Notes: a model not told the origin generated them from the letters alone. A stretch of 63,314 bases of DNA from a virus (IMGVR_UViG_3300037156_000068:1-63314); one strand, 5' to 3'; counted from the stretch's first letter, positions 43,506-44,450 are shown. Translations and numbers: made by a program.

Positions 43506-43877
43506 ATGTCCGTGACAATCGTCTATAAGACGGCAATGCGTTCACCTAAGCCTATGACTGAGGAAAGCGCCAAGGCTAAGCAATTGGCCAAAGGCAAGCG
43601 CCCCGGCAAACATGAACGCATGGCCCTTCGTGCTGAGCAACAAGCGCGCAAGGCTACCGTCTCAAGGAACCTTTCCAATCCTGCCAATGCGCCAACGTTT
43701 GCGCGCACTGATCGTGACGGGCCGCTTGTGCATATTGTTTCGGCTGGCAAATCTAGCGCCAACCGTGACACCCTGCTAGGTGGCTCGCACACAACGGGGT
43801 TTCACTCTTCGTCTATCCGTGGCCACAAGGCCGGGGAGCGTTCCGTTTCTCAACTATTTGCGCGGGACGGATTTTAG
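43506..43877 (+). CDS. basic hypothetical protein
   Basis: ggag SD; Lys/Arg-rich (KRPGKHER). Confidence 0.6.
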   Translation: MSVTIVYKTAMRSPKPMTEESAKAKQLAKGKRPGKHERMALRAEQQARKATVSRNLSNPANAPTFARTDRDGPLVHIVSAGKSSANRDTLLGGSHTTGFHSSSIRGHKAGERSVSQLFARDGF

Positions 43878-44450
43878 GGATTGACTTACGTTTTGTCAGT
43901 CCTTATCTAGGGGTTTGTTAAAGTTAGTCATGCCTTTCAGCCTTTGGGTTGTCGCGGTATGCCGCTAAGGGGTCCGGCGATTGTGGCCTAGGTGGTTAAG
44001 CGTGCGCTAGTACTCTCGCCGTCCTGAGCCTATGCGAAAGCATGGGGATGGGCATAGGGGTTGCAAAGCAAGCGTGATGACGTAAATCCGTACTTGGCGC
44101 GCGAACGTTCGCTAGGTCATTTGGGATAATCCCGCAGATAGGTCTAGGGCATAACTGTGCCTTTTACCTAGCGTCTTTAAGGCGCATTCGCTGGGGATAT
44201 CACTCGCTGCAATGTGAAGAAACGGAAAAGCAATCCGCCTATCACTTATGCCTTTGCAGCGATATTCATTTATGCCACGGCTTTGCAGCAACAAATCGCA
44301 TCGGGGGATGCATTATGGTTTGTTGCGCGTTAGGTTAATCGCCTAGCGTTAAGGGGTTGCGTCAATCAATCAATCAATCAATACGTGTCCCTTTAACCTT
44401 AGGCGATTATGTCTAAGGCCTTTTGCATTTGTGCAATAAGGTTTCAATTC
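43875..44450 (+). ncRNA. candidate large structured non-coding RNA (~580 nt)
   Basis: no credible ORF; at least 10 stems found by eye, with G-U pairs favouring the + strand. Confidence 0.6.
44363..44382 (+). repeat. (CAAT)5 in a hairpin loop
   Basis: caatcaatcaatcaatcaat, closed by taatcgccta/taggcgatta and inner stems. Confidence 0.95.

Follow-up and report, generated by a model that had tools for sequence, protein, structure and literature searches.

The trp and pyr attenuators are terminator/antiterminator leaders that include an anti-antiterminator, and in P4 and P1 mutually complementary segments within an untranslated leader control termination. Lambda N modifies RNA polymerase and involves no alternative RNA hairpins, in which it differs from the element described here. 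How phages time their early genes is known well for a few model phages only. The infC-L20 leader of B. subtilis is reported to be an attenuator of the terminator/antiterminator type (PMC1865079). The element in question occupies positions 43875-44461 of a 63,314-nucleotide (nt) stretch of peat phage DNA (an IMG/VR virus record, estimated to be 85% complete), the whole of which is called the window below. It is read on the + strand, between the gene for a small basic protein and an early gene of the phrog_1448 family (Table 1). With a probability of roughly 0.55, the region is a long structured cis-acting leader of the messenger RNA (mRNA) of this downstream early gene, the last 135 nt of which form a bistable switch.

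Besides the window, two lineages of relatives were retrieved: L002/L003, two contigs that are identical over their common range, and L004. The evidence base is thin: the element can be aligned in two sequences only, the window and L002, and these are complemented by the differences found in a single strain (run X3). The last 135 nt contain four mutually complementary segments that give two alternative folds. Pairing of segments 3 and 4 produces a hairpin followed by a U-run, which a consensus scan called as a terminator independently in both phages; in L002 the hairpin lies at the corresponding site (4908-4933) and has 10 pairs with TTTTGTCGTT behind them. Pairing of segments 2 and 3 produces a long hairpin at 44336-44409, which shares 44397-44409 with the terminator, so that the two are mutually exclusive. 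The (AATC)n run in the apical loop of this hairpin corresponds in L002 to a sequence that is merely A/U-rich, with AAATC-like words. Segment 2 contains GUUAAGGGG, which is like the ribosome site and has the anti-ribosome-site sequence as its partner. The latter, UCCCUUU, can also pair with the ribosome site AAAGGGA itself; this helix does not differ between the window and L002 in any of its 7 pairs, and it has a pair probability of 0.94 in L002. The pattern TGTCCCWTTARC, which was derived from the very sequences in which it was counted, is found a single time in the window, where 0.05 are expected, and a single time per locus in L002/L003 and L004, always just 5′ of the phrog_1448 homolog.

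When RNAalifold was applied to the two sequences over the whole region, it returned the terminator hairpin enclosed by the UCCCUUU/AAAGGGA helix, and on 44284-44470 it returned a single long hairpin; both folds are real alternatives. Sequence hallmarks of an attenuator are found at this locus: a hairpin with a U-run lies just 5′ of a gene on its coding strand, the putative antiterminator is conserved in L002, and the 1:2 pairing, as putative anti-antiterminator, would form first, the nascent RNA of both phages folding best in this way. Such an anatomy, with terminator, antiterminator, anti-antiterminator and a ribosome site that can be masked, suggests a leader acting in cis as a gate to the downstream gene. 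The scaffold, decoy and antitoxin-mimic functions suggested in the initial annotation found no such support.

The individual helices are preserved, in part through compensated pairs. The 1:2 helix comprises 8 pairs in the window and 7 in L002, one of them compensated, and the 1:4 helix has 6 pairs, two of them compensated, while the 3:4 helix contains one compensated pair, U-A to C-G. The 20 pairs of the 2:3 helix are all formed in the window (20/20), and 18 of 19 are formed in L002, with one gap, one compensated pair and four one-sided changes. The form that combines 1:2, 3:4 and UCCCUUU with the ribosome site, termed OFF, amounts to 24 pairs with 97.9% of cells paired and two compensated pairs; the form that combines 2:3 and 1:4, termed ON, amounts to 26 pairs with 98.0% of cells paired and three compensated pairs. 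Controls in which the partners were slid by 1-3 columns left 24-60% paired. Two sets of four positions, one position per segment, change together between the window and L002 (U,G,U,A to C,G,C,G and G,C,G,C to A,U,G,U), and all four helices are preserved through both sets. The OFF and ON forms differ little in energy, with -65.2 and -67.6 kcal/mol in the window, and -55.9 and -50.5 kcal/mol in L002.

From this arrangement we infer how termination and masking, the direction of switching and its trigger might work. While the RNA is being made, segment 1 would pair with segment 2, which would leave segment 3 free for segment 4 and allow the intrinsic terminator with its U-run to form. In this OFF state, which is taken as the default, UCCCUUU would mask the ribosome site AAAGGGA, and transcription would stop after some 500 nt of leader RNA, provided that it starts in or near H1, the hairpin at the stop codon of the basic gene. 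If 1:2 pairing were prevented, the long 2:3 hairpin, extended by 1:4, would form; there would be no terminator and the ribosome site would be free, giving the ON state. The putative signal receiver is the approximately 250 nt of conserved hairpins at 44086-44326, above all the GAAC-loop hairpin, and the small basic protein could serve as an antiterminator that binds the RNA and holds back the expression of the genes that follow.

Window and L002 share, without any difference, the blocks GTAAATCCGTA, GCGAACGT and TAGGTCATTT; these fold into this GAAC hairpin, in which 16 of 16 pairs are kept in both phages, three of them with changes on both sides. H1 retains 11 of 11 pairs in L002, with two one-sided changes. 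Together, H1 and the GAAC hairpin provide 27 pairs with 54 of 54 cells paired and three compensated, compared with 30-43% in slid controls. The GAAC hairpin is the best candidate binding site. The four hairpins that follow at 44139-44326 lie between sequence anchors common to the two phages, but their stem sequences are largely different; beyond alignment by MAFFT, they are left out of the pair counts. The L002 hairpins 4665-4697 and 4699-4712 (pair probability 0.85-0.97) share the anchors of the window pair at 44139-44185 with other stem sequences, and a 60-nt hairpin at 4732-4791 (loop CUAGCAA) has a shape like that of the long irregular hairpin of the window, with an ambiguous correspondence of pairs. 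A shorter hairpin, 4816-4832, stands in L002 in place of the one next to the switch. Neither long-range helices nor a multi-helix junction could be established from the two sequences. Internal 9-mer repeats are at or near chance level, and two longer look-alikes of switch parts occur at 43963-43992 and are specific to the window.

Run X3 contributes a 4957-nt contig that is about 96% alike to the window. In the core, 44078-44461, it has at least 7 substitutions in 384 nt, a lower bound in that 23 of the 26 differences along this piece are itemised, compared with 15 in 363 nt of the upstream gene. A hot spot at 44024-44070 carries 12 substitutions and two 2-nt deletions. There, the GAAA hairpin (44029-46) has lost 2 nt per arm and has two pairs altered by compensating changes, and it still forms a 5-bp stem with a GAAA loop. 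The pair 44024/44050 changes from C-G to U-A, position 44058 turns U-G into U-A, and position 44133 turns G-C into G-U. The (AATC)n run shows one substitution and two 1-nt deletions. Further upstream, 43831-43989 is replaced by 167 unrelated letters; the replacement takes in the final 15 codons of the basic gene, all of H1 and the 85 nt directly beyond it, and has a sharp mosaic boundary.

The feature is real, and it is an RNA of no family held in Rfam 15, i.e., a new RNA family. The gene-free stretch described in the initial annotation was borne out, since 43878-44461 contains no open reading frame (ORF) of more than 60 aa on either strand and none is opened when TAG is read as Gln or when translation table 4 is used. 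The + strand of 43875-44461 has a minimum free energy (MFE) of -222.3 kcal/mol, compared with a shuffle mean of -184.8 (z -6.74, 0 of 100 shuffles as good), and the - strand has -167 kcal/mol (z -3.89). The corresponding values are -231.2 (z -8.74) and -198 (z -6.42) for L002 4418-4982, and -175.7 (z -3.84) and -150.4 (z -2.02) for L004 4236-4690. All stems that had been listed from the sequence are present in the + strand MFE structure with mean pair probabilities of 0.61-0.99, and the wobbles were correctly read as G-U on the + strand (29 of 195 MFE pairs). The long-range stem 43983-91/44112-20 belongs to this structure as well, but it competes with the hairpin 44086-44127, which is the one conserved in L002.

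A sliding fold scan of 40.4-48 kb, which was rough (200-nt sections, 25 shuffles each), gave a + strand z of -2.8 or lower for five of the six sections starting at 43800-44300. The strongest sections elsewhere start at 45300 (-6.1) and 43100 (-4.1, the plain terminator 43118-43151). The surrounding arm had been called densely coding, which it is not: 43152-43505 and 45275-45653 are ORF-poor too, and the latter includes the strongly folding 45300-45499. With the gathering scores of Rfam 15, the sole match in the whole window is a tRNA on the - strand (29676-29746, 43.6 bits), while ARAGORN reports no tRNA in the whole window. At E ≤ 10, the best matches in 43200-44700 are four at chance level (E 5-9), and at E ≤ 1 the homologous stretches of L002 and L004 give nothing. 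The expected novelty of the RNA thus stands with respect to the Rfam covariance models, among them those of GOLLD, ROOL, T-box, riboswitches, C4 antisense RNA and group I and II introns. The portions of the literature that were searched contain no description of the element, which is single-copy in the window.

The order of basic protein gene, hairpin, long ORF-free structured stretch and phrog_1448 gene is found in the window, in L002 and in the distant L004; the link to both flanking genes that had been surmised is thus conserved, as gene order, in three phage lineages. In L002, a terminator, a leader, the small basic protein, a hairpin and about 570 nt without a conserved ORF precede the phrog_1448 homolog. 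L004 encodes a weakly similar 73-aa basic protein. A 13-bp hairpin is located at the stop codon of this gene, some 440 nt without an ORF come next, and an additional small ORF precedes the phrog_1448 homolog. The short leader of L004 has two near-equal folds, in which CCAUUA pairs upstream or downstream; because the ribosome site looks masked in both, these folds neither support nor refute the switch.

The basic gene probably starts with the Met at 43554. Its product has a Lys/Arg-rich N-terminal part and shares 51% identity over 82 aa with the product of L002:4132-4413 (E 2e-26); only three related clusters are known from the searches, and there is no Pfam or PHROG family match. As a first guess made from the layout, this protein is the first candidate trigger of the switch, because it travels with the RNA in all three lineages. 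A wider reading, which must be called tentative, would see here a new class of large phage riboregulators, in which about 400 nt of conserved RNA sense a phage or host signal, most plausibly the upstream basic protein on the GAAC hairpin, and control termination and translation of the next early genes. This would amount to N-like timing by RNA refolding in place of a modified polymerase.

The downstream protein is 69% identical between the window and L002, and 34% between the window and L004. Its ORF is open from the ATG at 44462, and the ATG at 44468 fits the ribosome site and the N-termini of the relatives. The predicted structure of the 270-aa protein had a mean pLDDT of 43 and the model was not used; a profile search of the PDB returned nothing below E 0.19. 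In the Autographiviridae phages Cd1, RSB3 and Paso, annotation begins with a distant phrog_1448 homolog, which lies 1.5-1.6 kb from the left end, behind a long untranslated leader. The gap between the last annotated promoter of Cd1 and its phrog_1448 homolog is about 600 nt.

Several observations weigh against a cis-acting leader with a terminal switch. Shuffle controls with two rows do not discriminate, as the observed values are reached in 249 of 500 shuffles for the OFF form, 67 of 500 for the ON form and 60 of 500 for H1 plus the GAAC hairpin; with only two sequences alignable, these controls are uninformative. The four helices are also interdependent: once 1:4, 2:3 and 1:2 are given, 3:4 follows, and they can therefore not be counted as four independent confirmations. 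The window terminator may be weak, because its U-run is short (CCUUUUG) and the ON form is slightly more stable in the window. The - strand folds of the window and L002 beat chance as well (see above). The 5′ 170 nt of the element cannot be aligned with L002, and the hairpin 44061-64/44068-71 drops two of its four pairs in X3. No conserved leader peptide of at least 20 aa was found between the window and L002: in L002, no + strand ORF of at least 20 aa ends near segment 1, and the 39- and 32-aa ORFs present there in the window are not shared. By eye, a 7-codon ORF (window) and an AUG-UGA (L002) lie 9-12 nt before segment 1, which may be chance. In Cd1, RSB3 and Paso, the leaders show no unusual degree of folding (z -1.0 to -2.9), and no shared motif, TGTCCCWTTARC included, was found in them; because these leaders are not unusually structured, the RNA is not a general companion of the phrog_1448 family. 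Finally, the basic protein as a homolog of lambda N reached an hhalign probability of 0.4% with no match to PF11438, and a lead towards PF25694 (atlas neighbour score 0.76, lead level at most) was accompanied by no PF25694 match in the window.

The position of the RNA 5′ end bears on the first alternative. The promoter TTGACT-17-TATCTA that the initial annotation placed at 43881-43909 overlaps H1. It is strengthened by L002, where TTGACA-16-TATTTT overlaps H1 at the same place with a 10/12 match, and weakened by the window and X3: the window site was not called by the scan, TATCTA matches the second hexamer at 3 of 6 positions and lacks the T at position 6, and X3 has another sequence where the window has the promoter-like stretch. 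Given the poor site in the window, the better one in L002 and the replacement in X3, the RNA may start inside H1 or continue from the upstream gene. The promoter-like motif that overlaps H1 has no second copy in the window.

A promoter in H1 would also suit a free-standing, trans-acting non-coding RNA of about 500 nt that ends at 44397-44418 and acts as decoy, scaffold or regulator, read-through into the next gene being incidental. This explanation, which comes near to that of the initial annotation, is unlikely, and it does not fully exclude a leader function. The promoter-like site of L002 with a strong terminator 450 nt downstream agrees with it, as do the large conserved core (about 385 nt), which changes in X3 about as slowly as the flanking genes, and the lack of a match to any known family. 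The poor, uncalled site of the window and the replacement of the H1/promoter stretch in X3 argue against it. Moreover, the terminator is interlocked with the antiterminator and with the ribosome-site mask of the next gene, which is sensible for control in cis, and a search for a complementary target elsewhere in the window found none.

The mosaic 5′ part that is replaced in the near-identical X3 could instead point to an untranslated spacer with no specific function, the heavy, G-rich folding of which is kept only as protection of the transcript against Rho or RNases, or which is left over from the recombination of phage modules. Other ORF-poor structured stretches of the early region, such as 45300-45499, would agree with this idea, as would a G-over-C skew of 0.125 and the 15% share of G-U among the MFE pairs. 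The non-coding stretch alone is, however, homologous between phages: nhmmer aligned window 44078-44429 with L002 4602-4942 (E 7.3e-17), and the neighbouring non-coding stretches 45275-46500 and 42900-43520 had no nhmmer match to L002. Blocks of 8-11 nt that are identical between phages whose neighbouring non-coding DNA is unalignable, the co-ordinated substitutions over four switch segments and the conserved ribosome-site-masking sequence argue against a mere spacer, which is somewhat less likely still than an RNA acting in trans. An element acting at the DNA level (replication origin, operator cluster or packaging site), with the folds as by-product of palindromes like CCTAGG, is very improbable, because the seven CTAG in 584 nt (3.2 per kb in the whole window), the better-than-shuffled - strand fold and the near-palindromic H1 overlapping a -35-like hexamer are outweighed by the strong strand asymmetry (-222 vs -167 kcal/mol), by conserved G-U pairs and G-C to G-U changes that would be A-C mismatches on the other strand, by U-runs that follow the terminator hairpins on the + strand only, and by searches that found neither iterons nor a longer shared operator word.

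Relatives of the locus are rare. The downstream protein has eight clusters at E ≤ 0.001 among 5.8 billion proteins, the window's own included; the other seven, like three clusters of the basic protein, occur in contigs from Logan, ENA and NCBI, and one ENA contig of 3032 nt seems to carry both flanking genes. In phage GenBank, blastn with 43300-45300 gave no match. A search of IMG/VR with a single protein found no relatives, and with a protein alignment (A1) 3 of 42 candidate stretches were relatives; the JGI metagenomes gave 3 of 192, on the same contigs as IMG/VR, and the GTDB genomes 0 of 239. With an alignment of the basic protein, 2 of 274 candidates in IMG/VR were relatives, on contigs already found. 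DNA pattern scans returned the two known contigs again and none in genomes. A loose DNA pattern hit six new loci, and 0 of 6 were confirmed by nhmmer or tblastn (best tblastn E 0.26). Further along in L002, CTAG recurs at regular short spacings in 6402-6594, which suggests a repeat array, and a tRNA recognised by Rfam (64.9 bits) comes next at 6651-6725.

DNA nearly identical to the window comes mostly from peat metagenome runs, and a groundwater run contains it at a low share. The structural module occupies the - strand at roughly 14-40.5 kb of the window, and the + strand early region, with many short ORFs and several ORF-poor stretches, extends from about 42 kb. Between them, at 41521-41598 on the - strand, two sigma-70-like promoters with 12/12 and 11/12 consensus matches face the HNH/terminase side. 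Strong hairpins like intrinsic terminators, each with a T-run, end the preceding small-ORF block in the window (43118-43151, 14 pairs) and in L002 (3716-3745, 12 pairs); in both phages, TTGACA and an approximately 300-nt leader come between this hairpin and the basic gene. These leaders have a few words in common between the window and L002 (e.g., GTGGTGAAACCC), yet no nhmmer match. Directly after the phrog_1448 gene, the second ORF-poor stretch (45275-45653), which shows no similarity to L002 by nhmmer, stops before a 21-codon hydrophobic ORF at 45654. In the right arm, a gene cluster at 52731-60137 encodes an amidoligase, a COOH-NH2 ligase and glutamine amidotransferases, together with a gamma-glutamyl cyclotransferase and an S6-glutaminyl-transferase-like protein, and looks like a peptide or metabolite ligation module.

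Table 1. Positions of the leader element, its predicted parts and neighbouring genes in the window
Feature	Position	Strand	Remarks
HNH endonuclease gene	40978-41271
Small basic protein gene	43554-43877 (probable start)	+	ORF open from 43350, ATG at 43506
H1, 11 bp with 9-nt loop	43875-43905 (43875-85/43895-905)	+	begins at basic-gene stop codon; mean pair probability 0.94
Variable 5′ domain	43906-44077	+	structured in each phage, unalignable between them; holds GAAA hairpin 44029-44046
Long-range stem	43983-91/44112-20	+	mean pair probability 0.81
Stem with GAAA loop	44029-35/44040-46	+	mean pair probability 0.98
GAAC-loop hairpin	44086-44127	+	base and loop identical in window and L002; middle stem covaries
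Hairpins	44139-44170 (two-part stem) and 44171-44185	+	pair probability 0.96-0.98
Stem	44139-43/44166-70	+	mean pair probability 0.97
Stem	44171-76/44180-85	+	mean pair probability 0.96
Long irregular hairpin, 59 nt	44204-44262	+	apical loop AAAGCAA; pair probability 0.56-0.96
Stem	44204-12/44254-62	+	mean pair probability 0.88
Hairpin next to switch, 10+5 bp	44288-44326	+	loop GGGG; pair probability 0.99-1.0
Stem	44288-97/44317-26	+	mean pair probability 0.99
Segment 1 (GCGUUAGG)	44327-34	+	pairs with segment 2 (44342-44349) or segment 4 (44413-44419)
Segment 2	44336-56	+	5′ arm of long antiterminator hairpin
Stem	44336-46/44399-409	+	mean pair probability 0.61
(AATC)n run	44362-44383	+	direct repeat; apical loop of long hairpin
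Segment 3	44388-44409	+	UCCCUUU (44388-94) complements ribosome site; 44397-44405 is 5′ arm of terminator
Terminator-like hairpin (3:4)	44397-44418 (to 44424 with CC and UUUU)	+	9 pairs, loop AUUA; followed by CCTTTTGCAT
Segment 4	44410-19	+
Ribosome-binding site AAAGGGA of downstream gene	44454-44460	+	pairs with 44388-44394
Downstream early gene, phrog_1448 family (function unknown), 270-aa ORF	44468-45274	+	PHROG E 1.4e-13

If the region is indeed a cis-acting leader with a switch, an RNA family absent from Rfam 15 would be added, and uncultured soil phages would stage their early genes by long riboswitch-like leaders that act on both termination and the ribosome site. The small basic protein, the RNA and the target gene would constitute a compact testable module, accessible to in vitro work even where the host is not at hand. 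In several cultured Autographiviridae, annotation starts with a phrog_1448 gene, and the tight control of this gene here hints that its dose or timing matters.

Among known phage RNAs, GOLLD, ROOL and the C4/CI antisense immunity RNAs of P1 and P4 are likewise long, highly structured and phage-borne, but they differ from the element in size and helix layout, and it matches none of them in Rfam 15. In its layout and protein composition, the locus is like lambda N/nut: an early operon opens with the gene of a small basic, probably disordered protein, a terminator that has to be passed on the way to the next genes comes after it, and the conserved GAAC-loop hairpin could, by its place, be the candidate RNA site for the basic protein. 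In contrast to lambda N, which belongs to PF11438, the basic proteins have no N homology. The closest resemblance of the proposed mechanism would be to terminator/antiterminator leaders (trp, pyr, infC-L20) and riboswitch expression platforms, to judge from the pairing pattern. As in these, four consecutive segments pair as 1:2 plus 3:4 or, exclusively, as 2:3, and a terminator-like hairpin lies just before the regulated gene; here, the ribosome site is masked as well. Unlike trp-type attenuators, the element has no conserved leader peptide, and unlike riboswitches and T-box leaders it contains no aptamer or T-box known to Rfam. Compared with known attenuators, the conserved structured part before the switch is unusually long, about 250 nt in addition to about 170 variable nt, and the element has early phage genes on both sides, whereas those attenuators belong to biosynthetic operons.

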